A stretch of 37,691 nucleotides of DNA from a virus (taxonomy: Duplodnaviria > Caudoviricetes): IMG/VR virus record IMGVR_UViG_3300034056_000018, positions 1 through 37,691 of that record; one strand, given 5' to 3'. Both the position numbers and the translations under genes were made by a program. Each line of letters starts with the position of its first letter. Position 1 is the stretch's first letter. Shown here piece by piece: positions 200-36,394 of the stretch. Below the pieces are notes generated by a model. That model ran no database searches and was not told the origin of the DNA. It saw nothing but the letters and a program-made list of their open reading frames with translations.

Positions 200-223
200 C
201 TCGCAATTTGATTATAGGGCGAA
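200..223 (+). repeat. 24-bp cassette-boundary site A: CTCGCAAT TTGATTAT AGGGCGAA
   Basis: Starts at the first base after the stop codon and precedes the next RBS; matches eight other sites in the window. Confidence 0.7.
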
Positions 224-240
224 TTTAAAGGGAGGATATT

Positions 241-423
241 ATGACAACTACAGAATTAATAGAATTATTAAAAAGTATAGAGCGTGGTGCTAGTGGCAGA
301 AGCAGAGAGATTAGTTTTAAAGTAGGTAAAGAACATATTTTTGAGCCCGATATAACAATTAGTAGCACAGGTGATGGTATTGCAGGGGCGGAAGTATGCT
401 TAAAAATTATAAAGAAAGATTGA
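241..423 (+). CDS. hypothetical protein, 60 aa
   Basis: GGGAGG RBS just upstream; bounded by sites A and B. Confidence 0.75.
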   Translation: MTTTELIELLKSIERGASGRSREISFKVGKEHIFEPDITISSTGDGIAGAEVCLKIIKKD

Positions 424-447
424 TATATCATTCAAAGAAATGAGCAA
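424..447 (+). repeat. 24-bp cassette-boundary site B (degenerate): TATATCAT TCAAAGAA ATGAGCAA
   Basis: Starts at the first base after TGA; same 8-8-8 register but weaker arms. Confidence 0.45.
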
Positions 448-483
448 CCATTATTGATAAGATTCATTAAGGAGGAATAAATT

Positions 484-645
484 ATGATAGTAATAAAGTG
501 TCCACAAAGCGATTGTGAAAGCACTGATGTGGTGTTTCACGAACACGAAGTTGTTAACGATAACGGCGATATTTACTATTGCAGAAATTGCGGAAATTAC
601 TTTGATGAATTTGCAGCTATAGAAGAACAAATGGAAGGTGAATAA
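484..645 (+). CDS. small zinc-ribbon-like protein, 53 aa
   Basis: AAGGAGG RBS; MIVIKCPQSDCES...YYCRNCGNYF with two Cys pairs; below the ORF-track cutoff. Confidence 0.75.
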   Translation: MIVIKCPQSDCESTDVVFHEHEVVNDNGDIYYCRNCGNYFDEFAAIEEQMEGE

Positions 646-662
646 TTCAAGTATAGGACGTA
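639..662 (+). repeat. 24-bp cassette-boundary site C: TGAATAAT TCAAGTAT AGGACGTA
   Basis: Contains the stop codon; left arm identical to site G and right arm identical to site E. Confidence 0.7.
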
Positions 663-665
663 AAT

Positions 666-691
666 AAGACTAGAGTATTCTCTAGTCTTTT
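666..691. terminator. intrinsic terminator between convergent genes
   Basis: Perfect 10-bp stem AAGACTAGAG/CTCTAGTCTT with a TATT loop. Confidence 0.8.
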
Positions 692-1601
692 ATCTTTCCA
701 TTTCTCTATCTTTTAACTTCTCGAGTGGTATCTTACATACACCTCTATAAAGCTTATTTTCCTTCCTAAGTTCCTTTATCTCTTTAGATAACTCTAAAAC
801 TCTCTTATCGGCTTCTAGAGCTTTAGTTTTATAATTTTCGATGTCACGTTCATATACTTTCAAAGTGTTCTCTAAACCCTTTATACGGTGTTTTAGGAGT
901 ATATTGTTCTTGTGTAGTGTCTGAGCTGATTCTTGAGTTACTTCATTGTCTAGTAGTCCATAATACTTTTTAATATCAATGTGTTTTGCTCTACTCTTTT
1001 TTATTCCTCTTTTTAAGCTTGGAAATCTTTCAGTAATTGTTTTAGCGTAATCGTCCTGGAGCTCGCTTAGTTTTTGTTTGTTTCCAAAGAAGTGTCTGTT
1101 GCTTAGTAAGTGATAGCCACGTTCTAGCCACCTCTTCGGTGAAATAAAAGCATGAATGTGAGGGCTAGTCTCATCCAGGTGAAGAATTGCATATAAAACC
1201 ATATCTTTGAACTTGTCTACTAGCCACTTAACATTAGTGTATACCCAGGATAGAAATTCCTCTTTACTGATATTATCAAAATATTCTTTAGATGCAGTTA
1301 ATAACATTTCCCTTCCTAGCGTGTTATCAACTTTTATAAACTTACAATCTGATATATATTCCTGCACGTTTTTAACTAGGTTTACGTCGCCTATAAGACG
1401 ATAATTTTTGATAGAGGTATCAGCATTAGGTGTGTCGTTAAACCTCTCCACGTGGTTTATAAACATCTGTATTTCACCGTAGTTTTTGAAGGAACGTTGT
1501 ACTCGCATTATTGCATAATAGTTCCCTCTTTGGGGAAAACTAAGAGGTTGGGTGCTTTCAAGTTGGAAGGGGTTATAATCTTTGATGTACTTACTAAACA
1601 C
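690..1601 (-). CDS. mobV: MobV/Pre family relaxase (plasmid recombination enzyme)
   Basis: YAIMRVQ start motif, NHVER, TPNAD, EMLLTAS, HLDETSPHIH metal-binding motif, LQDDY, LKRG...AKH and coiled-coil C-terminus. Confidence 0.92.
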   Translation of the reverse strand: MFSKYIKDYNPFQLESTQPLSFPQRGNYYAIMRVQRSFKNYGEIQMFINHVERFNDTPNADTSIKNYRLIGDVNLVKNVQEYISDCKFIKVDNTLGREMLLTASKEYFDNISKEEFLSWVYTNVKWLVDKFKDMVLYAILHLDETSPHIHAFISPKRWLERGYHLLSNRHFFGNKQKLSELQDDYAKTITERFPSLKRGIKKSRAKHIDIKKYYGLLDNEVTQESAQTLHKNNILLKHRIKGLENTLKVYERDIENYKTKALEADKRVLELSKEIKELRKENKLYRGVCKIPLEKLKDREMER

Positions 1602-2002
1602 TACCGCTCAACTCCCTTATCTTGATACCTTTCTTTATACTTTTCCTTTATCTCGTGTTCCCTGGCGAAGTGCCAAACAACCTCAGCAGCAGCTTCTTCT
1701 TTTGTATTGCATTTTAGAAGTTTAACCATGTGCTTTTCTTGCTCGTAATTAAGATCAGTGTCTAGACCTCTGAATATTTCATTATTCTCCATAACCTTGT
1801 GCATGAAGTTATTCCTTGTTTGAAGTTCGTTAATCTTCTTTTGTTGTCCGCTTAATAACTGATTAAGTGCAGTAATAAGTTCTTTATTACTCATAGTTTC
1901 GATATCTTTTTCTATTAACCATTGATACTCGTTGAATTTATTTAATAGGTTTTTAATGTGTGCCTTTAAAAAGAAGTCCTCAATATTTTCTTTAAGATTC
2001 AA
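1601..2002 (-). CDS. hypothetical coiled-coil protein coupled to the relaxase
   Basis: Stop overlaps the relaxase start; TTG at 2002 follows a GGGGG RBS (the ORF track extends to 2041). Confidence 0.65.
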   Translation of the reverse strand: MNLKENIEDFFLKAHIKNLLNKFNEYQWLIEKDIETMSNKELITALNQLLSGQQKKINELQTRNNFMHKVMENNEIFRGLDTDLNYEQEKHMVKLLKCNTKEEAAAEVVWHFAREHEIKEKYKERYQDKGVER

Positions 2003-2170
2003 TTTAAAACCCCCTATTATTAATTCTATCTTCAATGTCACATAGCTTTTGTAACAGGATATCCATATCGGTTTTTTTAGGTTTTCTAGTTTTCCAAAGA
2101 CTTATAGAGCAACCTGTTAATATTACTGCGGTTATTTTAACAATGTGTTGAAGTATAAAAGCATGAACCA

Positions 2171-3505
2171 TTACAACCACTCCTTGTATTTAGGATTTGT
2201 TTTATAATAATTGGTATCGTCTAATATAGGTTGAAAATTATCACTCAATATTACACATTTACCCTTTGGTATTCTCCTTAACTCTCCTGGTGTGAATAAA
2301 GGTTTCTTAGTTCTAACCTTTGATTTCTCTTGTTGTATGGTTATTTCTTCATCGTCACAAAGTAAACTTAATAATTTTAAAGTTTCAGAATCACTTATTC
2401 CCGGAAGTACCACCTTAGTTTTTAGGTTATTCCAAATGGTTAAAGCGTTATCGTGTCCATACACTTGTTTTAGTTGGTTAAAATCTTGCAAGAATAACTC
2501 AAAGGATATGCCACGTTTAGCACAAGTACTGATAGTTACATTAAAACCTGTGATCTGTCCAAGATTTGCAAATTCATCGAGTTTAAACCATATATCTAAA
2601 CCTTTAGTATCTATAAGCCTATTAATAAGCTGATTATACATAGGTGCTATTAACGGTGCTAAATAATATCCCATGTGTTCCGGGTAGGTTACATATACTA
2701 TTGTTTCTACCTTCCTTAGCGTTTCAGCATTGAAAGAAGTGCTTTTAATAGCTAGGTTATCAAGAAACAATCCAAGCATAGCAACCATAGTTCCCTTGAT
2801 ACTACCTTGCATATTCTGAGCAGATGCACCGCTTAAATAAGCTCTGTAATACCTTTCAGCATTACCATTAAAATCACTCTCCATTTTTTCATCATCGGCA
2901 ATTATGAAATATTCAATTACATCACTTAAACTCATTCTCTTACCTTTGGCATAAAAGAGAAGTGCAGCTAGTAGATTAGTGGACATTTGCAACCACTCAG
3001 TACCACCTGACTTTTTACCTGTTGGAAGTTCTATTGCTAGACAACCATTGATTAAAAGGTTTTGTGCTAACTGCACTACTTCTCTATCTTCTTTACACTC
3101 ACTTAAAGGATTGTATTCAACTTCTCCTGGTTTCAACGGATTGTATACTAATACTTTTCTACCTATTGATTCTTGAAATTTAGCAGTTGCGTTATATATT
3201 TCAAGCGAAGGATCATATACAATAATTGAACCTCTGATATTATTTTGAAGTAAATTAGGTATTAGAATATTGGTGGTTTTTCCTGCTCTTGTAGGTGCGA
3301 AAACTCCTATATGAGCTTGGCTTGCATCTTTTGAAAGGATATGATTTTTCGATAACTGTATTCCGTCTTTACCGCTTGATAACTCAGTTCCTAATTCTCC
3401 CGTTGCTAGTTTAACTCTTTCCCTTCTTGCTAGTACCGCTATTACTGCAAGTAGTGATCCTAGTCCTATTTTTAGTGCTAATTGAATAAAAGTTAATATT
3501 TCCAT
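2171..3505 (-). CDS. virD4: VirD4/TraG-type type IV coupling protein
   Basis: N-terminal TM segment, Walker A APTRAGKT, SIIVYDP, YNPL, Walker B LDEFANLG, LQDFNQLKQVYG, KPLFTPGELRR. Confidence 0.92.
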   Translation of the reverse strand: MEILTFIQLALKIGLGSLLAVIAVLARRERVKLATGELGTELSSGKDGIQLSKNHILSKDASQAHIGVFAPTRAGKTTNILIPNLLQNNIRGSIIVYDPSLEIYNATAKFQESIGRKVLVYNPLKPGEVEYNPLSECKEDREVVQLAQNLLINGCLAIELPTGKKSGGTEWLQMSTNLLAALLFYAKGKRMSLSDVIEYFIIADDEKMESDFNGNAERYYRAYLSGASAQNMQGSIKGTMVAMLGLFLDNLAIKSTSFNAETLRKVETIVYVTYPEHMGYYLAPLIAPMYNQLINRLIDTKGLDIWFKLDEFANLGQITGFNVTISTCAKRGISFELFLQDFNQLKQVYGHDNALTIWNNLKTKVVLPGISDSETLKLLSLLCDDEEITIQQEKSKVRTKKPLFTPGELRRIPKGKCVILSDNFQPILDDTNYYKTNPKYKEWL

Positions 3506-3561
3506 GATTACCCCCGTATATTTTTATTAATGTTGATAATAATATTAGTGAGGTGATTATT

Positions 3562-3636
3562 ATGCTAGTGTTAGAGATTATAGCTTGGGGTGCATCAATT
3601 ATATCTTTTGCAAGTGCGTTGAAGGATTTATTATAG
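3562..3636 (+). CDS. 24-aa hydrophobic peptide MLVLEIIAWGASIISFASALKDLL
   Basis: Strong GAGGTGA RBS; fills the virD4-parR gap on the opposite strand. Confidence 0.55.
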   Translation: MLVLEIIAWGASIISFASALKDLL

Positions 3637-3642
3637 GGGGAA

Positions 3643-3876
3643 CTATTCCCCCATGAACCTTTTTAATTCATCTATATCTAGTTCGTCAAATTCCTTAGGT
3701 TCTTCCACGACTTTTACATATTCTTTAATAAGTCTTTTAATAGTATCCTCTAAGGATTCCTTTTTCATATCTTCTCTAATTAACTCTTTCACGAAAGTAG
3801 AAAAGGGTTTATTCTGCGTTATAAAGTGTTCTATTAGTTTCTTATCCTTCTTACCGAAATTAACGGACTTACGCAT
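3643..3876 (-). CDS. ParR-like ribbon-helix-helix adaptor
   Basis: MRKSVNF...LIEHF...FSTFVKELIREDM RHH pattern, acidic tail, downstream of ParM. Confidence 0.7.
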   Translation of the reverse strand: MRKSVNFGKKDKKLIEHFITQNKPFSTFVKELIREDMKKESLEDTIKRLIKEYVKVVEEPKEFDELDIDELKRFMGE

Positions 3877-3891
3877 TCCATAACACCCTCC

Positions 3892-4311
3892 TTAACCTTG
3901 ATTATCGGTGCAGTAATCAACATGAAACGTGTTAAAATAAGGACAATATTTACCGTTAATTGTTTTTAGTTTTTCAAAGTCTATATTATTTGAATCCTTA
4001 AAAACTTTATCCAACTCCTGTGTTAATAGTGCATCTCGAATAACCTTTGAGTTTTCCTTAGTTATTTCAATCATTAAAGAATTGCAATATCCTGGTGTGT
4101 TTGTGCTATCTGCGGTTATCCATATACCTGGGGTTTTAGTATACTTTTTATAATATTTATTAACGTAGGAATCAAAAGCTTTTAGCATTGATTCTTTGTT
4201 GTCTGTAGTTCCTTCTTTTAAAATATTATCTCGTATTCTTTGAGTTATTATGTCTTTTGCAAGGCTTATACCTAATGCTACCGTCGCAATACCACAAGTT
4301 AAAATAATCAT
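3892..4311 (-). CDS. hypothetical protein with N-terminal hydrophobic segment
   Basis: GGGAGG RBS; lies between parM and parR. Confidence 0.7.
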   Translation of the reverse strand: MIILTCGIATVALGISLAKDIITQRIRDNILKEGTTDNKESMLKAFDSYVNKYYKKYTKTPGIWITADSTNTPGYCNSLMIEITKENSKVIRDALLTQELDKVFKDSNNIDFEKLKTINGKYCPYFNTFHVDYCTDNQG

Positions 4312-4328
4312 TATATTACTACCTCCCT

Positions 4329-5216
4329 TTAACTATTCCATAACATTTCGCCAACTGTTTCATTAGTGATGCTATTAGCAAACTGTGCATCTTCTACTAG
4401 GCTTATATTAGGGTATTCAGATTTAAAGTAATTTATAAGAGGTGCTGCACCCCCGCCAATTAATTCAATCTTACAGAGGTCATAATTAAAAGATTGATTA
4501 ACCTTGCTACATATCTTTGTTACGTGATCGGCTATTATAAATCTAGTAAAACTCATATCTCTAATTTCTTGCCTTATCTCATATTCATCTTTACCTATGA
4601 TATGCTCAATATCCTCACTACTCAACTTGCTTCTGTATTTAGCGTTTATAGCCTTTTTAAGCTCGTCATAAAGGGGTAGCATGCCAAGTGGTTCACTAGA
4701 ATGTTTAATAAGTTGTAGACCGTTAAATTCACTTATATCAGTAGTTCCTCCACCTATATCTATTAATAAGGTTCTTTGGCTTTTATATTTCTTAGGGTTA
4801 CTAAATACTATACTGTTTTCGCAAAATACCTCAGCATGTTTTATTCTTATGGTTCGTCTAACTCCATCAATATATATTTCTTGCATGCCCATGTTCGACA
4901 ACTTCTCTTTAAGTTCTTTTTTTAAGCTACTTTCGTATAAGTCCGGGGGTAGGCTTAGCACTACATTTTCCTCTATTACTTCATCATTGTTACTTTTAGC
5001 AATAGCAGTTAATAAGCATATATCGTACATATCGGAATAGATTCTATTAACTCCTATTACTGGTGTTCCTATCCCTACTGTGTACGGTTCATTTTTATAG
5101 ATTACCTTTATATCGTTGGTATTCATATCCTTGTGTCCTTTGCTTATGCGACTTGCAAACTTAATCATTCTGCTTGTTTTGGTTATCTCATTACCCAAGT
5201 CAATTCCTAAAGACAT
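4329..5216 (-). CDS. parM: ParM/StbA family actin-like partitioning ATPase
   Basis: Actin-fold motifs LGIDLGN, LIDIGGGTTD and LIGGGA. Confidence 0.9.
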   Translation of the reverse strand: MSLGIDLGNEITKTSRMIKFASRISKGHKDMNTNDIKVIYKNEPYTVGIGTPVIGVNRIYSDMYDICLLTAIAKSNNDEVIEENVVLSLPPDLYESSLKKELKEKLSNMGMQEIYIDGVRRTIRIKHAEVFCENSIVFSNPKKYKSQRTLLIDIGGGTTDISEFNGLQLIKHSSEPLGMLPLYDELKKAINAKYRSKLSSEDIEHIIGKDEYEIRQEIRDMSFTRFIIADHVTKICSKVNQSFNYDLCKIELIGGGAAPLINYFKSEYPNISLVEDAQFANSITNETVGEMLWNS

Positions 5217-5255
5217 TTAATATACCTCCTACTTTGTATGATTAACTCCTACTAT

Positions 5256-5333
5256 TATTTTATGTAGGTTAATACAAATAGTGCAAAAAGTATGATATTT
5301 TTGGTACTAAAATAAAACTATCGGCATATAGTA
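5256..5333. promoter_or_regulatory. back-to-back sigmaK/sigmaE-like promoter candidates
   Basis: Minus: GCAC-N16-CATAAAATA toward parM. Plus: AC-N17-CATATAGTA toward the 5368 ORF. Confidence 0.35.
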
Positions 5334-5367
5334 TTAATATAGAGAATGAAAAAGGGGAATAGTAAAC

Positions 5368-5589
5368 ATGTTAAAAATGAAGTCTTATCCATTTACTAGA
5401 GAAGGTTTTGAGGAAATGACCGCTAAGAAACCAATAATAACTAAGAAGAATTTAGTATTAGGAGTAACTGCAATAGCTTATATCTCTATAATTGCATTAC
5501 AAGCCAGTACAGGCACGATTGCTAGTATGGGTTCAGTAGAGGATAGCTTAATAAAAGCATTCTTTACAAAGCCACCAGTAGGACTATAG
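5368..5589 (+). CDS. hypothetical single-pass membrane protein
   Basis: AAGGGG RBS; hydrophobic stretch LVLGVTAIAYISIIAL. Confidence 0.7.
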   Translation: MLKMKSYPFTREGFEEMTAKKPIITKKNLVLGVTAIAYISIIALQASTGTIASMGSVEDSLIKAFFTKPPVGL

Positions 5590-5601
5590 GAGGTATGGAG
5601 T

Positions 5602-5799
5602 ATGTATAAATATTTTGCAGTATTCAAAAGTGGTAGATTATCAGAATATCAACTAGGGAATGACTTTCCGCATTACGAGTTTTTCGCACCAGGTGACGAA
5701 GATGCAAGAGATTGGGCGGAAGATTGGATAGAAGAATATAACGAAGATCACAAGACTAATTTTAGATTGTATATGATATATCCTTTAGGAGGTGCTTAG
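5602..5799 (+). CDS. hypothetical acidic protein
   Basis: AGGAGG RBS; follows the previous gene in an apparent operon. Confidence 0.7.
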   Translation: MYKYFAVFKSGRLSEYQLGNDFPHYEFFAPGDEDARDWAEDWIEEYNEDHKTNFRLYMIYPLGGA

Positions 5800-5800
5800 A

Positions 5801-6121
5801 GTGAAAAAAGAAATAATAGATTTAGCAAAACAGTATTCTACAGATATGAACGGAAAGACAATATTGAATTGTAATTTTACATGTGGTGATATGGCTTTAA
5901 GGATTGATAATATTAATGAAAAGGACGTTTATGTGTGTGCTAGAATTGACGGTACAGAGTGGAAATTTGATTTCTTTAGGCAGGCTTGTGTATTTCACTT
6001 CATAACCACTCAAGTAGGTTCACAAGAGGACGAAACGTTAAACGAATATTACGAAACAATAAAATATACGGTTGGTTCTAAATCGAAACAAGAAATTCAA
6101 TTACAACAAAAATTGTTATAA
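5801..6121 (+). CDS. hypothetical protein
   Basis: AGGAGGT RBS fits a GTG at 5801 (the ORF track starts at 5792). Confidence 0.65.
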   Translation: MKKEIIDLAKQYSTDMNGKTILNCNFTCGDMALRIDNINEKDVYVCARIDGTEWKFDFFRQACVFHFITTQVGSQEDETLNEYYETIKYTVGSKSKQEIQLQQKLL

Positions 6122-6123
6122 CA

Positions 6124-6150
6124 AAAGGGGTGGAGTTAACCGCCCCTTTC
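6124..6150. terminator. bidirectional terminator between the plasmid block and the lysis cassette
   Basis: AAAAGGGGTGG...CCGCCCCTTT stem between convergent genes. Confidence 0.7.
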
Positions 6151-6175
6151 CTCATGTCGTGATTTCCGACATTAG

Positions 6176-6379
6176 CTATTTATCATCACCAAAACCACTA
6201 TTTTCTGTGGTAGGATCATTTAAAATTCCCGCACCCACCAATATTGATAAACCTGTATTAACCAAAATGTCAATGTCCTCAGGCAACTGATAATTGGTGA
6301 ATGTCTTTATTAATAACATAACAAAGCCTATCACGCTAAATATAAAGGCTTTATTGCGTAGTCTACTTTTTAAGTCCAT
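6176..6379 (-). CDS. phage holin (phi LC3-like)
   Basis: MDLKSRLRNKAF start, two TM segments, GILNDPTT motif. Confidence 0.85.
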   Translation of the reverse strand: MDLKSRLRNKAFIFSVIGFVMLLIKTFTNYQLPEDIDILVNTGLSILVGAGILNDPTTENSGFGDDK

Positions 6380-7245
6380 TAGGAAACCACCTCCAACATT
6401 TTACTAAAGGTTTTAGGACCTACAATTCCATCCGCAACTAAACCATGTTTAGACTGAAAAGATTTAACTGCCGCTAGTGTTTTAGAACCAAATATACTAT
6501 CTATGTTAACTCCAACAACTAACTGAATAACTCTTACTGCTCTATCGTTGTTTGATCCTAATTTTATAATAGGTAGTTTTGATACTGCCGACCTAGTTAA
6601 AGGACCTACAATTCCATCAACAACTAAATTAGCAACTCTTAATACATTGCATAACTCTTGAAACTCTTTAACTCTAACATTTCCCAGTGACTTTGGTGCT
6701 TGTTTTACCTCTACTGGTTTAACTTCTATTGGTGTAACTCCATAAGATTTAACCTCGTTCATAAAAGTATCCTTATCAATAGAAGTACCTGGACATGTCT
6801 TTGGTGAATTCTCTCTATGGAATCTTATATATCTTCCTTTGTCATTAAAGTACTTAGCAAGCTTTAACATAGAATCCTTTTGAGTTCCACCGAATACGTC
6901 ATTACCTAGTTCGTTAGGTTGTCCAGTACCAGGAGTATCAAAGTTGCCTAATATCTCACAAGCAAATGCACCTGTGTTATATCCGCTAATAGATGCAGGC
7001 TTTACTCCAAAATCTCTACCAGTTACAAATAAACCGTTAGGAAGCAAAGTAACATGTTGCCCTATATCCGTCCAACCATTTGTATTTATATGAGTTCTTC
7101 TCATACTTGCTTGTAATTCTAGTCCATTGTTACCGTTAAAGCTAGAATGTGCGGGTTTCCATGTGTGGTGTGTATGTAACTCTTTATAGTCATACTTTTC
7201 TAATTCTGAAATTAATTGTTCTACGGTTAAAATTCTATCTGACAT
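6379..7245 (-). CDS. endolysin: N-acetylmuramoyl-L-alanine amidase with C-terminal peptidoglycan-binding repeats
   Basis: HTHHT, NGWTDIGQH, HRE..KTCPG catalytic motifs; VDGIVGPLT, IDSIFGSKT, FQSKHGLVADGIVGPKT repeats. Start 7245 or 7254. Confidence 0.9.
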   Translation of the reverse strand: MSDRILTVEQLISELEKYDYKELHTHHTWKPAHSSFNGNNGLELQASMRRTHINTNGWTDIGQHVTLLPNGLFVTGRDFGVKPASISGYNTGAFACEILGNFDTPGTGQPNELGNDVFGGTQKDSMLKLAKYFNDKGRYIRFHRENSPKTCPGTSIDKDTFMNEVKSYGVTPIEVKPVEVKQAPKSLGNVRVKEFQELCNVLRVANLVVDGIVGPLTRSAVSKLPIIKLGSNNDRAVRVIQLVVGVNIDSIFGSKTLAAVKSFQSKHGLVADGIVGPKTFSKMLEVVS

Positions 7246-7246
7246 A

Positions 7247-7776: not shown

Positions 7777-7842
7777 ATACTTCCCCCAAACTAAAAGGAA
7801 ATATGTCCTTTTATATTCTTAGTAAGATGTTGATATACTAGG

Positions 7843-7872
7843 AAAAAGAGATAGGTTTTATTTCCTATCTCT
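7843..7872 (-). terminator. intrinsic terminator at the end of the structural operon
   Basis: AGAGATAGG/CCTATCTCT stem followed by a T run on the minus strand. Confidence 0.75.
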
Positions 7873-7965: not shown

Positions 7966-7975
7966 AAAACCACCC

Positions 7976-12793: not shown

Positions 12794-14629
12794 TTATTTA
12801 ACTTGCTTTCCAATTGTATATTTTAAAACTAAAGCTATTATTGAAAGGTTTTTATTATATTCGTTATTAGAAATCTCGAACTGAAAATAGATTACCCTCT
12901 TGGAATTACGTATTTTCTCTTTAACCACAGGGTCAAACTTTAATACTTTCCATGAGAAGTTATTCCATGAGAAATTACCCCATGAAAAACTCTTAGTATC
13001 CGCTGAACTTATAGGAATACTCTCAGTTTCGTGTTTGTCGTTGTAGATATTAACAGAGATTGAACTTGAACTATTAGCTCTGGTAGTCAACCAAAAAGCA
13101 TTTATAGTTTTTTCATAGTCCGTATAACCGAAATCCATTATCTTTGACTTCCATATAGCGTTTATAGGCTGCCCAAAGTCATTAGAAGCTGCTATAAACT
13201 TAACTAAGTGCCCTAGTTCTCTGTGACCGTAACAGAGTTCGTTATCACGACTAAAGAAGCAATTAGCCTTTATATTATCGTAATAGAACCATGTCAATGT
13301 CTTAGGCTTTTTAACATCAAAAGAAATCTTGTAATCCCATATATAACAATGATCGTCAACACATATATAATACTTGTTACCTAAATCAAAACTAGAAGCA
13401 CTCTTTAGCATTGTAACATCTTCTTGAAGTAATCCGGGACGTTGAAGATTACCATTGATATTGTCACTCACAGGAGTTATATTCTTTTCTCCTGGTATTA
13501 AGGTACTTAGAATTATATGAACCCCTCCATAAGTGTTACAAAATACAACATTATTGTTAACTAATTGTACTGTATCCGGCATGTCACAACCTATTTCCGT
13601 ATTCAAGTATGATATAGGGAATGAAGCGGTATTGTCTAGTCCTAGTGCAGCCTCCACAGTTGCGGTTAAATCCTCTTTAAATACTATTAACTTCCCATAA
13701 TGCACCGCAAAAGCAGTAACTTTCTTATCAGCACCCCTTACCCCGTACCGATATTTCTCAGGGAAATAAGAAGCATCTAGGGAATCAGTAACACCACTAG
13801 CAAAATAGAAGTTAGGTATATCGTCATTCCCTGTAAAGAACATTCTATTACTAAATTCTATTGCCCTCTTACATTTGAGTATAGAATCAACCTTTCCGCT
13901 AAAGGTTTTATATGCAGTAATCTGCACATTATTTAAGCCACTTGCAGGAGCAGCACTAAAATTAACATATCCTGTGGTACGATTAACGGTAAATCCACTA
14001 CCCTCTGTAAGTCCTGCTAAATTAACTGTTACTGTAGTATTTTCTAAACTATCAAAGCTTAATTTATAAGCAGTTGAAGTTCCGTCACCGTTGAACTGGT
14101 CCGTAAATCCTGTACCTATCATGTTCCAACTTTCATTAACTGTACTTTCAGAACCATCCGGCTTACGGTTAATACTAACCTTAGGTATATAAGGGGTAAC
14201 TGTACTTACCGTTGTACCATCGTATTTTATGTAGTTAGTTCCGTTAATCATATACAGAGTACCATTATAGACAAAGAAAAAAGCCTTACTATTAGCAAGA
14301 CCGCTATATACTTCCACAGGTTGATTACTTCCAACCTGTGTATATAGTTTTGTTCCATGTGCTATTATGGTTTTATCTTTATAGTTACTGTAAACACCAT
14401 TTATAGCCCCTGAGCCGAGGGAAGTTTCATAGACATAGGCTTGCCCATACCTTTTGATTAACATGCCCCCATCGTCGCAATTAAGGTTTACCATGTAAGG
14501 ACTTTGGGTAAGGTTAATGTCTGATTCTTGGTCTAGACACAAGCCACCATTTAGAGGTATTTTACCGTTGGCCCCTAACCTTAATTCGTATTCCTTCTTT
14601 TTACTTGTAGGGTAATTCAAATTTACCAC
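12794..14629 (-). CDS. tail nozzle / DNA stabilisation protein (P22 gp10 / T7 gp12-like)
   Basis: 611-aa beta-rich protein, NGGL...SP.MVN start, EIGC motif; follows the adaptor. Confidence 0.65.
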   Translation of the reverse strand: MVNLNYPTSKKKEYELRLGANGKIPLNGGLCLDQESDINLTQSPYMVNLNCDDGGMLIKRYGQAYVYETSLGSGAINGVYSNYKDKTIIAHGTKLYTQVGSNQPVEVYSGLANSKAFFFVYNGTLYMINGTNYIKYDGTTVSTVTPYIPKVSINRKPDGSESTVNESWNMIGTGFTDQFNGDGTSTAYKLSFDSLENTTVTVNLAGLTEGSGFTVNRTTGYVNFSAAPASGLNNVQITAYKTFSGKVDSILKCKRAIEFSNRMFFTGNDDIPNFYFASGVTDSLDASYFPEKYRYGVRGADKKVTAFAVHYGKLIVFKEDLTATVEAALGLDNTASFPISYLNTEIGCDMPDTVQLVNNNVVFCNTYGGVHIILSTLIPGEKNITPVSDNINGNLQRPGLLQEDVTMLKSASSFDLGNKYYICVDDHCYIWDYKISFDVKKPKTLTWFYYDNIKANCFFSRDNELCYGHRELGHLVKFIAASNDFGQPINAIWKSKIMDFGYTDYEKTINAFWLTTRANSSSSISVNIYNDKHETESIPISSADTKSFSWGNFSWNNFSWKVLKFDPVVKEKIRNSKRVIYFQFEISNNEYNKNLSIIALVLKYTIGKQVK

Positions 14630-29566: not shown

Positions 29567-29576
29567 ACATTCACCT

Positions 29577-29936: not shown

Positions 29937-30120
29937 TTTTACAACCCCACTTTACAATTTTATCTCTATTGCCTTGATGTACTCTATAAGTGTAATTCGG
30001 TCTTTGTACACAGAATATATAAGCTTCTGTAGAGGTTGCCTTTGTGCAAACCCCAACCAAACCATGCCAATCTGACCCGTCTTTGATTTGTATATAATCA
30101 TTCTTCTTTATGTCTATCAT
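29926..30120 (-). CDS. hypothetical protein, 64 aa
   Basis: GAAGGG RBS; overlaps the MazG-like start. Confidence 0.65.
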   Translation of the reverse strand: MIDIKKNDYIQIKDGSDWHGLVGVCTKATSTEAYIFCVQRPNYTYRVHQGNRDKIVKWGCKNGD

Positions 30121-30147
30121 TTTATAACCCTTCTTTCTGTGGTTATT

Positions 30148-30171
30148 TACATCTTATCTTTGTATTGCGTA
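30148..30171 (-). repeat. 24-bp cassette-boundary site D2: TACGCAAT ACAAAGAT AAGATGTA
   Basis: 6 nt after the stop of the 46-aa gene; direct repeat with D1. Confidence 0.7.
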
Positions 30172-30177
30172 TCAATT

Positions 30178-30318
30178 TTATTTGCTCCAAGCATCTCTGA
30201 TAATTTTGTTTGAACACTTTCTGCAAATTTCTTTCCCATTGTCTACGTAGAGTTCAATGCGTTTATGCTCTTCGCCACAGATTTCGCATTTAATAATTTC
30301 TTGCATATTTTGTTTCAT
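30178..30318 (-). CDS. 46-aa zinc-finger protein (putative cassette gene)
   Basis: AAGGAGG RBS; KCEICGE...ICRKCS; flanked by sites D1 and D2. Confidence 0.7.
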   Translation of the reverse strand: MKQNMQEIIKCEICGEEHKRIELYVDNGKEICRKCSNKIIRDAWSK

Positions 30319-30334
30319 AATATCCTCCTTGTAG

Positions 30335-30358
30335 TTCACAATATACTCAAATTGTGTC
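30335..30358 (-). repeat. 24-bp cassette-boundary site D1: GACACAAT TTGAGTAT ATTGTGAA
   Basis: Starts at the first base after the ssb stop; CACAAT/ATTGTG inverted arms; spacer 7/8 identical to site A. Confidence 0.75.
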
Positions 30359-30745
30359 TTAGAAAGGACTATCTCCCAAATCTCCTGTCATTCCTTCAAA
30401 TCCGCTATCACTTGCAGTTTCATTACTTGCTTGTTGTCCTTTACTTAAAAACTGTACTTCACTTGCTACAACCTCTGTAACATATCTTTTAGAACCATCT
30501 TTGGCATCATAGGAACGACTTTGGAGTCTGCCACACACCGCAACCAAAGAACCTTTACTAGTGAAATTCGCTACATTTTCGGCAATTTTACCCCAAACAA
30601 CTACCGCTATATAATCAGCACCTTTTTCACCATTTACAAACTTATCTACTGCTATAGTGAAACTAGCAACCGCTTTCCCATCGTTTTGAGTAAACTTCAA
30701 ATCACAATCCTTAGTAAGCCTGCCAATCAAAATCGCTTTATTCAT
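30359..30745 (-). CDS. ssb: single-stranded DNA-binding protein
   Basis: MNKAILIGRLTKD, VVWGK.AE, GRLQSRSY, YVTEVVA, acidic tail ending PF. Confidence 0.95.
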   Translation of the reverse strand: MNKAILIGRLTKDCDLKFTQNDGKAVASFTIAVDKFVNGEKGADYIAVVVWGKIAENVANFTSKGSLVAVCGRLQSRSYDAKDGSKRYVTEVVASEVQFLSKGQQASNETASDSGFEGMTGDLGDSPF

Positions 30746-31085
30746 TATTCATTCTCCTTTTAATTTTATTTCTTTCCCTGATAAATTTGTGTTCTACACT
30801 CCTACTACTTCTAGCAGTTCCAAATTTATAACACAAGTGTGCAGCTATCTGTTCATAGGTACATTCATTTTTCAACCTTTGTGCTTCTTCCCATTCTTCA
30901 TTGGTCCACCACACATATTCTTCTGATCTACAACCTTTTTTTAATAACTTTTTATGAATTGAATCTTCTGACCTACCCATTATCTCAGCTATAGTTACTA
31001 TTGTTAACCCTTCTTTTCTTAATCTCATTGCTTCTTTTTCCTCTTTTATGGTCCAGAGCATAACTACACCTACTTTAATTTCCAT
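30738..31085 (-). CDS. tandem HTH/Myb-like DNA-binding protein
   Basis: Two WT..E...A..L...T...IA...RS..S repeats; true start may be 31061. Confidence 0.6.
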   Translation of the reverse strand: MEIKVGVVMLWTIKEEKEAMRLRKEGLTIVTIAEIMGRSEDSIHKKLLKKGCRSEEYVWWTNEEWEEAQRLKNECTYEQIAAHLCYKFGTARSSRSVEHKFIRERNKIKRRMNNE

Positions 31086-31441
31086 TTCAAATTCAAAGGT
31101 ATAGTTGATGTTGGTATCATGCAGTCGCTTAAACCCTCTGTAGTTATATAAAGGTTATCATTTAATAGCTTGGCATTATAAACTCTACCATTTGTAGCAC
31201 CTTCAAACTCTAAGTTAGGATTTACCTCTAATATCGAAATTAAATCTCTTAAACCATATTCACTCATTTTATTATCCTCCCCTATCACTTTACTATCTCT
31301 TTTCGGTAACACTCCCCCGGCTTCTTCTACATCTAGAGCAAACCAGGCATCATGCGACCATTCTTTTACTTCTACAATTCTTCCTATGTACTTTTCATGC
31401 CACCATTCTTCTATTGAGCAACCTATTATTTCAACCTTCAT
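31070..31441 (-). CDS. hypothetical protein, 123 aa
   Basis: AGGTGAGG RBS. Confidence 0.65.
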   Translation of the reverse strand: MKVEIIGCSIEEWWHEKYIGRIVEVKEWSHDAWFALDVEEAGGVLPKRDSKVIGEDNKMSEYGLRDLISILEVNPNLEFEGATNGRVYNAKLLNDNLYITTEGLSDCMIPTSTIPLNLKWKLK

Positions 31442-31456
31442 ACCTCACCTACTTAT

Positions 31457-31480
31457 TACACAATATATAGCAATTATTCA
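31457..31480 (-). repeat. 24-bp cassette-boundary site G: TGAATAAT TGCTATAT ATTGTGTA
   Basis: 11 nt after the methyltransferase stop; left arm identical to site C, right arm 7/8 to D1. Confidence 0.7.
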
Positions 31481-31491
31481 TTACCCCGCAT

Positions 31492-32259
31492 CTACTCGTA
31501 TATATAACCATTAATCCTGTTGTAAGTTATTTCTACAGCTCTAGGGTTAATGTCACAACCTATATAATTACGCTCCAATATTTTAGCCTTTGCTATGAAA
31601 AATCCAGAACCCATAAAGAAATCTGCTACAGTATCTCCTTTATCACTTGATGCTAATATAATTCTCTCTGCTAAAGATAAAGGTTTTTGAGTATCATATC
31701 CAACATATTCTACATTAGCAGGATTTACTATACACTTTATATCAGTCCACCAATCAACCATAGGAGTTCCAATATTAACTCTATCTGATTTATCTTCACC
31801 CCTATGTTTGTGCTTAAGTCGTCCTACCGAGTTATCGTTGTACGGCTGATATTGAGTGTTAAACTTATAATCTTTGGTTTTTGAATAGAATAATATATTA
31901 TCGTGTTTTCGGTTAAATCTTTGCTTGGTGATACCCCCGCCGTTATAACACCATATGATTTCATTCTGAAAATTATCGTAGCCAAACACATCGTCCATTA
32001 TTTCTCTTATCCAGTGAACTATTCTGTAATCCATTTGTAGATATATAGACCCTGTGACTTTTAATAATCTATGCATTTCATCAAGTCTAGGTATATAAAA
32101 GCTTTCCACTACCACTCTATTTGGTTTCAAATCTTGATAATCTTTGAATTTCTTACCTGTGCAATATAGAATATCACCATATATCAAATCAATGCTTTCG
32201 CTTGGCAAACTTTTCATGTACTCAAGATTATCCATGCAGACAACTTTATTTATTTCCAT
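31492..32259 (-). CDS. orphan beta-class N6-adenine/N4-cytosine DNA methyltransferase
   Basis: IDLIYGDILY, GSIYL, NEIIW.Y, HDNILFYSK, TQKP..L..RII, VADFFMGSG, YIGCDI; ATG at 32259 follows AGGAGG. Confidence 0.88.
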   Translation of the reverse strand: MEINKVVCMDNLEYMKSLPSESIDLIYGDILYCTGKKFKDYQDLKPNRVVVESFYIPRLDEMHRLLKVTGSIYLQMDYRIVHWIREIMDDVFGYDNFQNEIIWCYNGGGITKQRFNRKHDNILFYSKTKDYKFNTQYQPYNDNSVGRLKHKHRGEDKSDRVNIGTPMVDWWTDIKCIVNPANVEYVGYDTQKPLSLAERIILASSDKGDTVADFFMGSGFFIAKAKILERNYIGCDINPRAVEITYNRINGYIYE

Positions 32260-32261
32260 AC

Positions 32262-32285
32262 AACCTCCTAAATTCAAATTGCTTC
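32262..32285 (-). repeat. 24-bp cassette-boundary site H: GAAGCAAT TTGAATTT AGGAGGTT
   Basis: Contains the upstream stop codon; its right arm doubles as the methyltransferase RBS. Confidence 0.5.
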
Positions 32286-33044
32286 AACCTCATAACTTGT
32301 TATCCCTAGTTCTTTTTTTATCCTTATGTATGTCTTTTCTGATATCCCAAGTTTATCTATAATCTTTTTATTGGTGTTGTATCCCTCTTTAACTAGGTTC
32401 AGTATTTCTTCTTTGGTTGCTACCTTTTTCTTTATCCCTTTTCTACCTTTGACAACAATTACATCTTCACCATTTTCCCTACATGCTTTTATCCTGTTAC
32501 ATATACAAGTTTCAGAAACTCCGAGTATCTTAGCTACTTCTCTTTGGTTGTGAGTTTTTAACAACTCTTTCATTCTCTCTATGTCAACTTTATATACGAC
32601 TTTTTGAGTTATTCCGCTACAACGTCTATACCTACAAACCGTATTAACAGAAACATTCATTATTTTAGCTATTTCACTTGCGTCCATATCTTTTTTTATA
32701 AGTTCCATTATCTTTTCAATCCTATCGCCCTTACTCACTCTATAGCTTGTAAGTCCGTACTCCCTTTTATAGTCGCTTAACGTACTTTTAGATATGAATA
32801 ATTCTTTTGCAATTGCTTCATGTTTCCAGTTCTTATTCATTAACTCTATTATTTTTTCTTTTGAGGGTTTTATTTTCTTAGAATCTTCTCTGAGGTAAGC
32901 TTTTGTTGTTGCGGTATGTGCTGCTTCTGTATTTACTGTTAATCTGTTTTCAAATATGAATTTGTTTAATTCTCTAGTGGTGGGCATTACTTCAAAATTC
33001 TTCTTAACTAATTTTACAAACTCTTTTGTCTGCATCCTTATCAC
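32274..33044 (-). CDS. multi-HTH DNA-binding protein
   Basis: Four HTH-like repeats (IAKELFISKSTL, IAKIMNVSVNTV, VAKILGVSETCI, IIDKLGISEKTY); true start may be 33035. Confidence 0.75.
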   Translation of the reverse strand: MIRMQTKEFVKLVKKNFEVMPTTRELNKFIFENRLTVNTEAAHTATTKAYLREDSKKIKPSKEKIIELMNKNWKHEAIAKELFISKSTLSDYKREYGLTSYRVSKGDRIEKIMELIKKDMDASEIAKIMNVSVNTVCRYRRCSGITQKVVYKVDIERMKELLKTHNQREVAKILGVSETCICNRIKACRENGEDVIVVKGRKGIKKKVATKEEILNLVKEGYNTNKKIIDKLGISEKTYIRIKKELGITSYEVEAI

Positions 33045-33156
33045 TCCTTATTTCTTCATCGAGTGCGTTTAACTTCTTTTCTGCTTCTTCAATGGTGCAT
33101 CCTACTGCCTTAGCCAATATCATTGCGGTTTTCATTCTTAATAATTCGTCCCTCAT
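33004..33156 (-). CDS. 50-aa hypothetical protein
   Basis: Open frame MRDELLRMKTAMILAKAVGC... filling the gap after dnaB. Confidence 0.45.
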   Translation of the reverse strand: MRDELLRMKTAMILAKAVGCTIEEAEKKLNALDEEIRSDKDADKRVCKIS

Positions 33157-33197
33157 TTTCTCATACCCTCTTTCACTTTACTTCTTAATATTTTACT

Positions 33198-34589
33198 TTA
33201 CTTCTTACCCTGTTTATTAAATAGTGTTGGATTGTATTTACCTTCGTATGTCATGTCTAGGTTGCCTATTCTCTGATATTCTGGCTTCCAATGAAAAGCC
33301 TTTTTACTTGCAGGAACATTACGTCCTTTTAATATGTGTATCTCCATACACTCTGGATTAACTGTGGCATCTTTAGCATGATAATTAAGTTTTCCACTAT
33401 TGTTTAATTCTTCTCTATAGCCTGGATCTTCTAACCTTTTATCTCGGTAAAGTCCTAATACTAGGTCACTATCTTCCGCTATTCCTCCAGATTCTTTTAT
33501 ATCTGAAAGCGTTGGTGCTTTATCTATCCTTTGTTCAACCATTCTATTTATCTGTGCAGTTATTATTATTGGCATCCCTAACTGACCGCCTAATATTTTC
33601 AGCCTTCTTGTTATACTTCCTAAAAACTCAGCTCTTTTACTCGACTTGTCCTTAAAGTCCGTAACTCTATTAATTAAATCCAGGAATATAACGTCAGTAT
33701 TGTATTTTAGCTTTTCAATCTTTATCTGTTTGATTATCCTATTTATATCATCCATGTATTCGTATATTTCAAAGTGCTTTCCTGCTAGGAATGTTGATAT
33801 ATACTGAACCATTTTGTCTTTTTCCTGTGTGTTTAACTGCTTTTTATCCAACTTTTCAAACTCTATAGAGCAACCATTGGAAACCAATTTATTTATTATC
33901 TCTTCTCTTCCCATTTCTAAGCTGAACAGAGCTATTTTTTTATTCTGTCTTAACATGTTGAGTATTATTTGACTTGTAACTATAGACTTCCCAACTCCTG
34001 TATAAGCTGCTATTGTTATTAGTTGCCCTGGTTTAATTCCATTTGTAACATCATCAATTTTACTTAACCCTGTTTTTATTGTCTTTTCTTCTTTAGGTTC
34101 ATACATTTCATTTATATACTCAAACAAATATTCATTAGTGCTTATGGTCTTGTCCTCTTCCTTTAGAAGTTCCGTTGTTAACTCACCAAGATCACTTGTT
34201 ATAGCTTCAACATTATTACTAAAGTCTATTTTCTGTACCGTTTTAAGTATCTTCCGTTTATTCATGTATTCCACTAACATTCCTACGTAGGATTCAAAGT
34301 GCATTGTCGTTGCTATACCACCAATTAATTCACCGACATAAGTTATGCTTATATTCTTTCCACTCTCTTTTACATAATCAAGCAGCGTGATTACATCAAT
34401 TGGCTTGTCAGCTTTTTTAATATCTTTCATAAGTCCAAATATCTCAGCGTTAACAGTAGCGTAAAACAAGTCATTAGGGTAATATTCTATATCGTTAAAT
34501 AGCGTGTTGTCTTTAAGCAAACAACCTAACACAGATTGCTCTACTTGGTTATTGTGCATATGCTCTGATGCTTTGGCTAAGTCAATCAC
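33198..34589 (-). CDS. dnaB: DnaB-like replicative helicase
   Basis: EQSVLG, Walker A AAYTGVGKS, FSLEM, AQINR, PTLSDIKESGGIAEDSDLV. Confidence 0.92.
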   Translation of the reverse strand: MIDLAKASEHMHNNQVEQSVLGCLLKDNTLFNDIEYYPNDLFYATVNAEIFGLMKDIKKADKPIDVITLLDYVKESGKNISITYVGELIGGIATTMHFESYVGMLVEYMNKRKILKTVQKIDFSNNVEAITSDLGELTTELLKEEDKTISTNEYLFEYINEMYEPKEEKTIKTGLSKIDDVTNGIKPGQLITIAAYTGVGKSIVTSQIILNMLRQNKKIALFSLEMGREEIINKLVSNGCSIEFEKLDKKQLNTQEKDKMVQYISTFLAGKHFEIYEYMDDINRIIKQIKIEKLKYNTDVIFLDLINRVTDFKDKSSKRAEFLGSITRRLKILGGQLGMPIIITAQINRMVEQRIDKAPTLSDIKESGGIAEDSDLVLGLYRDKRLEDPGYREELNNSGKLNYHAKDATVNPECMEIHILKGRNVPASKKAFHWKPEYQRIGNLDMTYEGKYNPTLFNKQGKK

Positions 34590-34599
34590 ATTATCACCT

Positions 34600-35391
34600 C
34601 TAATCTATATATCTTGATCGGTCTGTTTCTACTTCTACTTTCACCTCCATTTCTAAATATCCTTTATATTCTGCATTTTGTCCTATGAAATTTGTACTTC
34701 TAACCATGTATTGCCTGTCTACTGTTTTTCTAGCCTTTAAATAGGCTATATATTTTTCAGTAGCTTTCATGATGTTTTCAACGGATTCGGTTTTAATTCG
34801 ATTCTTCCAGTTTTTGAATGTTTGGGATTTGTTAAAAGGATTGGGATACAATTTATAGAAACGCTCAAATTCTTCTGTATATTTAACCTCTGATTTCTTT
34901 TTCTCTATATCTTCTTTTATATCTTGCTCTATCTCTATATCTATATGCTCGTTACTTTTTGTTACCTCGTCGTTACTGTTAGTTACATCACCGTTACAAA
35001 GTAACGCTATATTTTCTTTATTCTCTCTATACCTTCTTACCCTCTCAGCACTTTGTCCTTCACTTCCAATTAGGTTTTGTACCTCTGTCATGAATAGAGT
35101 TCCATCATCTAGCCTTTCAACCATTCCTAGTTGTAGAAAAACTGTAATAGCTGCTCTTACAATATCAATGTTTGTGTTTGTGATAGTTGATAGCATTTCA
35201 TCTGAGTAAGGTATTGTGTTTTTAAATAATAAGTGTCCCTCAGTATTTATGCTTTTCAATTGTAGCTTTAAAAGGAATATTATATAGTCCTTTCCATTCT
35301 TCATACTTTCAACGATCTTTATATCATCTTGTTCAAAGAAGTCCTGTTTTAATTTCAACCAGTAAAATCTTTTTTCTGCCACTTCTATCAC
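34600..35391 (-). CDS. phage replisome organiser / replication initiator
   Basis: KRFYWLKLKQDFF, IPYSDEML, IGSE..SAERVRRYR, C-terminal FERFYKLYP; upstream of dnaB. Confidence 0.88.
   Translation of the reverse strand: MIEVAEKRFYWLKLKQDFFEQDDIKIVESMKNGKDYIIFLLKLQLKSINTEGHLLFKNTIPYSDEMLSTITNTNIDIVRAAITVFLQLGMVERLDDGTLFMTEVQNLIGSEGQSAERVRRYRENKENIALLCNGDVTNSNDEVTKSNEHIDIEIEQDIKEDIEKKKSEVKYTEEFERFYKLYPNPFNKSQTFKNWKNRIKTESVENIMKATEKYIAYLKARKTVDRQYMVRSTNFIGQNAEYKGYLEMEVKVEVETDRSRYID
34951..35005. repeat. iteron-like origin candidate inside the initiator gene
   Basis: GTTAC at 34951, 34961, 34972, 34982, 34993 plus inverted GTAAC at 35001. Confidence 0.7.
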
Positions 35392-35775
35392 CTACTCAAA
35401 TTCGCTAATATAATCTTGTAAGAAGTAGTATTTTATATACAGTCTTTTTCTCAAGAACATATCCATATTTTTTTCTTTAGTTAGGTGTAAGACTTTAAAC
35501 TCTTCCCTTAAATCCTCAAGACTTTTTTTGCTGAACATATTCAAGTAATACCCTTCGTTGTATTGGCTTGTATTTATGTCGTTAGCCTTTGGAATTAACT
35601 TTTCATAGAATTTATAAAGGTTGTATTTCTCTTCACCAAACCTTTTTTCTATATATATCCTGGGATAATATTCTGATAGTGTCCATAAAAAATCCAATCT
35701 TTTTATTAGCCATTCTTCATCTTCTTCCCATTCATTAGGTTTATAAGGTTCAGTATACCGTCTGTAATCTTTCAT
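35392..35775 (-). CDS. hypothetical protein, 127 aa
   Basis: AAGGAG RBS; abuts the initiator start. Confidence 0.7.
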   Translation of the reverse strand: MKDYRRYTEPYKPNEWEEDEEWLIKRLDFLWTLSEYYPRIYIEKRFGEEKYNLYKFYEKLIPKANDINTSQYNEGYYLNMFSKKSLEDLREEFKVLHLTKEKNMDMFLRKRLYIKYYFLQDYISEFE

Positions 35776-35776
35776 A

Positions 35777-35929
35777 TTACTGCTCCTTTTGTCTTTGGAT
35801 CTTTTCTTCTATAGCTTCTAATATAAACTTGTTCATTGACATACCTTTTTTCTCAGCTGCTGCTTTTATAACATCTCTATATTCGCTAACAAACTTCAGT
35901 GGAAATGTTATAACTTTGAATTCGTTCAT
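35777..35929 (-). CDS. 50-aa Arc/RHH-like regulator
   Basis: VITFPLKF...IKAAAEKKGMSMNKFILEAIEEK; AAGGAGG RBS; first gene of the replication operon. Confidence 0.75.
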   Translation of the reverse strand: MNEFKVITFPLKFVSEYRDVIKAAAEKKGMSMNKFILEAIEEKIQRQKEQ

Positions 35930-35972
35930 TGTTAAACCTCCTTTATTAATAGTTACTAACTACTATACTTTA

Positions 35973-36001
35973 ATTATATACCCTTCTTAACTATATTGCA
36001 A
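35973..36001 (-). promoter_or_regulatory. sigmaA-type promoter of the replication operon
   Basis: TTGCAA-N17-TATAAT. Confidence 0.7.
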
Positions 36002-36095
36002 TAGTATTTGGAATAATTTTTTAATTTTTCTGGAATATTTTTTTATATATTGGTTACAATAATAGTATCCTCAGTTTCGAAATACATTATACTTT

Positions 36096-36126
36096 AGAGG
36101 TATGTTGTAGCATACCTCTTTTTTTT
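36096..36126. terminator. intrinsic terminator hairpin
   Basis: AGAGGTATG/CATACCTCT stem; T run on the plus strand. Confidence 0.7.
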
Positions 36127-36149
36127 ACGTCCTATTATTGTATGGCGAA
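36126..36149 (-). repeat. 24-bp cassette-boundary site E: TTCGCCAT ACAATAAT AGGACGTA
   Basis: 3 nt after the stop of the 67-aa gene; right arm identical to site C. Confidence 0.7.
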
Positions 36150-36152
36150 TCA

Positions 36153-36356
36153 TTATTCAATAATTTCAACACTATCAATTTCATTAAAGTGTAACGATAG
36201 ATTATCTTCAAATTGCACACTACCGTCGCCTACAAAACGTACAATACCCTGAATAACAGTACCTTTTAAGCTTGTTAGTCTTACATTTTGATTTTTTCTT
36301 AATACGATATTTCTATTTTCATCAACCAAAACTATCTCGTTTCTAAATTTTTTCAC
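36153..36356 (-). CDS. 67-aa hypothetical protein (putative cassette gene)
   Basis: GGAGGTG RBS; flanked by sites F and E. Confidence 0.7.
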   Translation of the reverse strand: MKKFRNEIVLVDENRNIVLRKNQNVRLTSLKGTVIQGIVRFVGDGSVQFEDNLSLHFNEIDSVEIIE

Positions 36357-36370
36357 TTCACACCTCCATG

Positions 36371-36394
36371 TTCACCCTATATTCATATTTTTCA
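36371..36394 (-). repeat. 24-bp cassette-boundary site F: TGAAAAAT ATGAATAT AGGGTGAA
   Basis: Just before the RBS; left arm 7/8 to sites C and G, right arm 7/8 to site A. Confidence 0.65.

Follow-up and report, generated by a model that had tools for sequence, protein, structure and literature searches.

The window analysed here is a 37,691-nucleotide contig of a Caudoviricetes phage (Duplodnaviria), IMG/VR record IMGVR_UViG_3300034056_000018, taken over its whole length (positions 1 to 37,691). It contains a family of 24-bp sites at gene ends, nine of which had been called in an earlier sequence-only reading. The sites come in ordered pairs with different cores, and they are likely (probability about 0.6) the core sites of a tyrosine recombinase that would recombine them only where two cores match. 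Mirror-image arms, a crossover held to the core, and cores specific to each slot are the pattern that tyrosine recombinases produce. On sequence comparison, the window sites are members of a Clostridium-phage family with near-mirror 9-bp arms and a 6-bp core.

Sites A (200..223), B (424..447), and C (639..662) lie on the plus strand. Sites D2 (30148..30171), D1 (30335..30358), G (31457..31480), H (32262..32285), E (36126..36149), and F (36371..36394) lie on the minus strand, where the coordinate of a site is its first base on that strand. An exact sequence check found all nine 24-mers as written, at the positions reported and in the orientation of their genes. This orientation is read from the A-rich core, and the near-symmetric arms make it partly a convention. 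The sites range from 12 bases before to 13 bases after a stop codon, which agrees with the earlier claim that all overlap a stop or lie within 13 nt of one. A, B, and D1 begin at the base directly after the stop, again as claimed. The other offsets from the upstream stop are +3 (E), +6 (D2), +11 (G), -7 (C), and -12 (H), and F begins 13 nt after a 27-codon open reading frame (ORF) at 36408-36491.

The sites differ in how firmly they score. With a leave-one-out matrix, A, C, D1, D2, and F outscored every non-training position. One non-training position scored above E, one above H, 16 above G, and 50 above B. An outside matrix was made from 27 sites of other phages and no window sites, the 27 having first been found via the window's matrix. 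It placed exactly four of 75,336 positions above 12 bits: D2 (rank 1), D1, E, and A (15.9 bits). Each of the four exceeded 15 bits, and 60 Markov shuffles averaged 0.08 such positions, with a maximum of 2. F ranked next (11.8 bits), followed at a distance by C (rank 16), H (40), G (44), and B (156). Among 60 gene ends, the claimed sites made up 7 of the best-scoring 8. Five sites are strong and firm (A, D1, D2, E, and F). C is supported by the leave-one-out test and G by an alternative contig junction. H and B are doubtful as members of the claimed family, because the right arm of H is the Shine-Dalgarno sequence of a methylase gene and B is degenerate.

The layout had been given as 8-8-8. Two arms around a spacer were retained, and 9-bp arms with a 6-bp core are the better reading. 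Arm pairing in the nine sites averaged 4.2 of 8 positions, versus 2.1 in random 24-mers. Core lengths of 5, 7, and 8 bp gave no arm-only window hits, and 6 bp gave three, with a model that included window sites. The spacer is not random, and the cores sort into classes. The inverted arms and asymmetric centre agree with the tyrosine-recombinase core-site geometry recognised earlier.

The same motif directly follows stop codons in related phage loci. An exact-pattern scan of IMG/VR gave 52 loci, nearly all of low GC content, and genome matches with the same context were labelled Clostridium, Clostridiales, or uncultured Firmicutes. Higher-GC phage loci carried further cores. In early regions, a TGA-core site stands before one or two genes and a CAA-core site after them. 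In other phages, seven of the eight TGA-core sites at stops had a CAA-core site within 2 kb downstream, and 8 of 11 CAA-core sites had a TGA site ahead. Core positions 10-11 were neutralised in the matrix used for these counts. The paired flanking cores differed at the first two bases in all paired cases. The window pairs F-E, D1-D2, and A-B/C obey the TGA-then-CAA order. A TGA site follows ssb both in the window (D1) and in locus L004, with unrelated cargo. In the cultured phage phiCT453B, a TGA/CAA pair flanks a radical-SAM gene, and each site lies at the first base beyond a stop codon. Early cargo includes an MT-A70 methylase and small genes of no known function.

Some cultured phages gave little or nothing. 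No site match was found in phiCD38-2 and only two marginal ones in phiSM101, and phiCT19406B had three, two of them inside genes and the third on the opposite strand. When cultured phages and plasmids were searched with short BLAST queries, chance matches alone came back. Strong single or tandem gene-end sites with other cores were present in five loci (L109, L115, L118, L119, and L121), in chromosomal accessory-gene regions of Clostridiaceae genomes. L003 contains a 102-bp duplication of a small gene (5658-5759 and about 6718-6817), and its second copy stops 4 bases before a TGA site.

A second class, which the sequence-only reading did not include, lies within tail genes. Gut phages carry a TAAAGA-core site in frame inside a tail gene, translating as about S-Q-F-K-D-I-A. 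This site and a TAAAAA site downstream on the same strand were present in 23 of 27 gut phage records. The records were picked for a pattern match, and the in-frame site itself was not a selection criterion. One reading frame was used by 44 of the 45 sites that lie inside long ORFs. Beyond the site, the tail proteins carry GDSL esterase, pectate-lyase-like, peptidase, and other domains; in one of them a BppU anchor lies ahead of the site. Among 78 protein alignments at the tail site, 13 ended, 14 began, 20 crossed, and 31 did otherwise. The 8- to 9-bp arms are conserved, and in gut sites they are often extended by flanking bases. Genome G001 carries an early pair and a tail pair together. In another Clostridium genome the tail pair has the cores TGAAAA and TAAACC.

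Several gut phages (L013 at 3976-4024, L018, L162, and L182) contain a third site, core TGAATC, one base after the tail closing site. In a chromosomal setting, L087 (3001-3079; the same as L111) carries a pair of tail-type sites that are spaced 55 bp apart and have phage-type flanks; the pair resembles an emptied or remnant cassette. In the window, a weak site-like 24-mer (10.4 bits, core TGAAAA) lies on the minus strand at 13101-13124 inside a 611-aa tail ORF. Its frame is that of the tail-type sites, and no closing partner was seen.

The sites are constrained at the DNA level. The codon GCG was kept in 39 of 44 in-frame sites, versus 6% of Ala codons genome-wide. In 27 of 44 the third base of the first codon was a G, with the residue varying among S, A, and T. 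Selection for a hairpin was not found in 106 gut sites, which held 24 A.C mismatches versus 2 compensated pairs, and folding fails in 5 of the 9 window sites. Within the sites, neither a consensus promoter nor a terminator was found; weak 9-of-12 matches touch the edges only, and promoter counts around the sites were near the shuffle level. Because of the kept codons, the non-covarying arms, the poor folding, and the absence of an internal promoter, the evidence points to sites read as double-stranded DNA by a dimeric or tetrameric protein.

Homology between related phages breaks at the sites, probably inside the core, and to that extent the sequence-only reading is supported. In 49 loci, 182 of 690 BLAST alignment ends lay within 12 bp of a site, versus 1.5% expected. 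At sites not selected by the search the count was 96 of 690 (0.8% expected), and at site-free stop codons it was 53 of 690 (3.4% expected). L016, L028, and L062 were left out of this count and of the crossover mapping. A variant at position 9 tracks the left flank (0.93 versus 0.67), and variants at positions 16 and 23 track the right flank (0.89 and 0.92 versus 0.70 and 0.67). Since position 9 follows the left flank and 16 and 23 the right, the crossover probably falls in or near the 6-bp core. Six four-gamete quartets were found at in-frame sites. A three-way mosaic has its junction at an early CAA site, where three flanks occur in two combinations.

Two runs contained window sequence. In run X1, which holds the window phage, one short contig agrees with the window up to and including base 13 of G. 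It continues with a different core end, an arm that shares 7 of 8 bases with the C/E right arm, and a Shine-Dalgarno sequence. Another X1 contig, at window position 36124, has the hairpin downstream of E joined to a different gene end without a site. Run X2 contained scattered pieces of the window phage only, with no junction at a site.

The proposed mechanism is as follows. We infer that a recombinase would bind the arms and cross over, by the chemistry of its class, only where two cores match. Since the two cores of a pair are unlike, the genome would not lose the enclosed gene as a loop. A co-resident phage or prophage would be the partner: two crossovers, one joining the genomes at one site and one resolving them at the other, would replace the enclosed gene or tail tip. 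One crossover would swap everything downstream. Replacement is favored over excision because the paired cores differ. In recombinase-mediated cassette exchange with loxP sites, two unlike sites around a cassette likewise favor replacement over excision.

Published systems offer precedents for individual steps. TnpI cleaves with a 6-bp stagger (PMC2847244). Exchange between dif modules is matched by the spacer, with one mismatch tolerated, and pdif module replacement proceeds via cointegrate formation and resolution (PMC13141974).

The sequence-only reading found no recombinase in the window, and this held. No tyrosine or serine recombinase, including PF00589 and serine resolvase, was found in the contig, which is linear and 52% complete (CheckV). 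The enzyme would act in trans, because no PF00589 match turned up in 13 of the 29 near-complete records. The leading candidate is a phage-borne Xer-like recombinase of 325-350 aa, which is encoded shortly after a site in phiCp-D, L153, L019, and L031. Alternatively, the enzyme may be a Xer-like protein of the host. The candidate has chromosomal relatives in 7 of 112 genomes. Loci L313-L319 hold hsdS-adjacent relatives of the candidate with short repeats of their own and are probable type I restriction shufflons. A 217- to 223-aa recombinase before the terminase genes was set aside; only two phages have it near a site, at a distance of about 1.1 kb.

We also rejected the site as a chromosomal dif. 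The pattern fitted in 13 of 112 genomes, at 15 places versus 15 in the control, with genomes that are often incomplete and a pattern that may be too strict. A universal chromosomal copy of the site was not found in the 112 genomes, where matches stayed at the control level. No site scored beside a host tyrosine-recombinase (Xer-like) gene in the chromosomal regions examined. In PMC3025954, predicted dif sites of the genus Clostridium lie 137-176 degrees from the GC-skew shift in 4 rows and are given as undetermined in 2 rows. The true Clostridium dimer-resolution site may thus be unknown.

Several observations weigh against a dedicated recombinase working on matched cores. The events behind the breakpoint counts are not independent, and most of the counts were made at tail sites in other phages. 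Position 16 is barely apart from background (0.89 versus 0.85), the invariance of the core in the crossover mapping was partly imposed by the filter, and closing sites gave no four-gamete quartets. Flank sharing is concentrated in pairs with the same core (207 versus 7 pairs), which common descent predicts likewise. The junction at G is one short contig, from a run that is perhaps the source sample, and 4 of the 5 loose ends in X1 are not inside a site. A close relative of the window phage was absent from the finds. L003 and L004 each have two TGAATA cores in direct repeat, which weighs against strict matching because strict matching should let them delete. The enzyme is also loosely tied to the sites. 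Of the 48 records searched, 22 had PF00589, as had 16 of the 29 near-complete ones (L018 and L038 not counted). For the candidate family, only 4 of 8 cases show a site in the 460 bp upstream. A site match of at least 12 bits was present at 14 of 79 further loci of the family, three of the 14 already known. Six of the seven chromosomal relatives adjoin hsdS genes, where the repeats are of another sequence. The link between site and candidate could stem from the candidate's location near tails and early genes.

These points leave room for other explanations. The sites may be short shared linkers kept for protein binding, with exchange by relaxed homologous recombination (Erf/Sak/RecT) and no dedicated enzyme. 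An Erf protein is encoded in the window, the sites show no consistent link to any tyrosine recombinase, any shared stretch of 24-32 bp would gather breakpoints, and exchange of this kind has been proposed for PeSL cassettes (PMC2839356). This account gives no reason for the mirror arms, the slot-specific asymmetric cores, or the TGA-then-CAA order. The sites are not promoter-terminator units, and the early sites are too divergent from one another to offer much homology. We treat it as a serious competitor, with perhaps a quarter of the weight. The version in the sequence-only reading, in which single genes are excised as circles and re-inserted as in integrons, would suit cargo genes with a site on both sides and genomes that hold identical cores in direct repeat. 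Spacers with one mismatch can also recombine in pdif modules (PMC13141974). Against it, the cores that flank a gene are unlike (TGA versus CAA), and neither an attC-like hairpin in the sites nor an integron integrase in the incomplete contig was found. No skip joint across a cassette was present in contigs of the two runs, and contigs drop rare forms. We regard excision of single genes as improbable and did not retain that claim.

Repressor operators, or roadblocks like stoperators, would have no role in recombination. The sites are co-oriented with transcription and lie near ribosome-binding sites, and the window encodes helix-turn-helix (HTH) and Arc-like proteins, as this role would have it. 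The in-frame copies at tail-domain joints and the copies before terminators control no promoter, however, and breakpoints concentrate on the sites. The HTH and Arc-like proteins of the window had no tblastn match in any fetched locus. The operator role is very improbable. It is less credible still that the tail copies are conserved protein joints and the early copies chance or Shine-Dalgarno look-alikes. H coincides with a Shine-Dalgarno sequence, B and G score low, and Shine-Dalgarno-driven matches occur in other phages too. Rare codons nonetheless persist where the residue changes, non-coding DNA carries the same arms, and four window sites exceed 15 bits against the 0.08 expected. The look-alike explanation stands for H and B; for the five firm sites (A, D1, D2, E, and F) it is largely refuted.

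Known systems share parts of this arrangement. The pdif/dif modules of Acinetobacter plasmids, which use XerC/XerD, also have accessory genes bounded by sites of two arms and a 6-bp spacer, and single modules are replaced between related replicons at matching spacers with no recombinase on the element (PMC13141974). Unlike the printed pdif/dif arms, the arms here are near-symmetric, and the sites appear co-oriented and do not alternate between C/D and D/C. They also differ in belonging to Clostridia phages and in having one class in frame in a tail gene, and no matching chromosomal dif was found. By eye, the gut consensus agrees with the B. subtilis dif of PMC3025954 at 5 and 7 of 11 positions. 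TnpI/IRS (PMC2847244) and Cre/loxP core sites have inverted arms, an asymmetric 8-bp centre, and a 6-bp exchanged part, and the core geometry here is of that type. The sites differ from Cre/lox in having no cognate recombinase gene reliably beside them (PF00589 is absent from the 13 near-complete records above), in having several pairs per genome, and in being a natural arrangement.

Integron attC sites, including those in phages, also follow the stop of each small gene and are co-oriented (PMC9892861). The sites here differ in having no folded single-strand form, no integron integrase found in the incomplete contig, a length of 24 bp, and paired unlike cores. PeSL elements of T4-type phages are repeated intergenic elements where relatives swap accessory genes (PMC2839356). 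They consist of a promoter and a terminator, whereas the sites here have neither and some copies lie inside a coding frame. In hsdS shuffling loci such as pneumococcal tvr, a recombinase drives the exchange of protein domains at repeats (PMC6265443), and relatives of the candidate lie beside hsdS genes. These loci differ in acting at one locus next to their recombinase and on other repeat sequences. The sites would work like pdif module exchange or cassette exchange at unlike lox sites, and by the features tested they appear to lie outside pdif, attC, and PeSL.

In the window, site A (opening class, core TGATTA) is followed by a 60-aa gene without a family (241..423, plus strand). Next is site B, which has the closing-class core CAAAGA and degenerate arms and may be decayed. 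Between B and C is a 53-aa Zn-ribbon-like gene (484..645, plus strand; weak match below cut-off). C is of the closing class (core CAAGTA) and is the last site before a terminator; an intrinsic-terminator-like hairpin follows directly (666..689, plus strand). D1 (opening class, core TGAGTA) and D2 (closing class, core CAAAGA) flank a small Cys-rich cargo gene (30178..30339, minus strand).

Between H (core TGAATT) and G (core GCTATA) is an N6/N4 DNA methylase ORF (31492..32277, minus strand; PF01555). G follows the methylase, and the alternative contig departs inside its core at 31468. A 256-aa protein with several tandem HTH motifs (32274-33044) had no match in the fetched loci. F (opening class, core TGAATA) and E (closing class, core CAATAA) flank a 67-aa cargo gene without a family (36153..36356, minus strand). 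A hairpin follows E at 36096-36119, which the terminator scan calls a plus-strand terminator. A good sigma-70-type promoter lies downstream of E, before an Arc-like gene (35973-36001, minus strand).

The window encodes a P22-like portal, a terminase, a DnaB helicase, a replisome organiser, ssb, and an Erf-family single-strand annealing protein (37099..37689, minus strand; PF04404) that is cut by the contig end. It also encodes a Mob_Pre relaxase, a type IV coupling protein, and a ParM-like actin (690..5216, minus strand), and it is therefore probably a phage-plasmid. The host group was taken from the phages that share the window's genes and sites, which suggest a Clostridia-type phage. The window thus pairs a podovirus-type structural module with ParM, relaxase, and coupling protein. 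phiCp-D likewise has ParM and a coupling protein, which suggests mobilisable phage-plasmids.

No close relative of the window phage was found in searches by several proteins or among GenBank phages and plasmids. Relatives of the HD protein were at 52-69% identity, and the best relative of the capsid was at 69%. The replisome organiser matched 4 distant loci, and the Mob protein had zero matches. GenBank phages gave short matches only, plasmids gave zero, and no RNA holder was listed.

A long-standing question is whether phage mosaicism has boundary sequences and enzymes of its own or results from exchange that is random and homologous. No publication describing this site family was found by title and start of abstract, in a scope that excludes subscription journals and bioRxiv supplements. 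Look-ups by sequence and by place likewise gave nothing on the family. Tentatively, and at somewhat less than even odds, Firmicutes phages may share a system of cassette exchange with one recombinase family acting in trans, common arms, and 6-bp core codes that define slots. On the same slot reading, held just as tentatively, tail tips and early genes would be swapped slot by slot across morphologies, and clade-specific codes would limit the partners. If the recombinase reading is true, a mosaic boundary would be a defined 24-bp site with a core code; the site is present in the cultured phages phiCT453B and phiCp-D. The reading would also point to an uncharacterised recombinase with several non-cross-reacting sites. 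Clostridium phages could then swap the enzymatic tips of tail proteins in frame, and their cassettes would be predictable from sequence.

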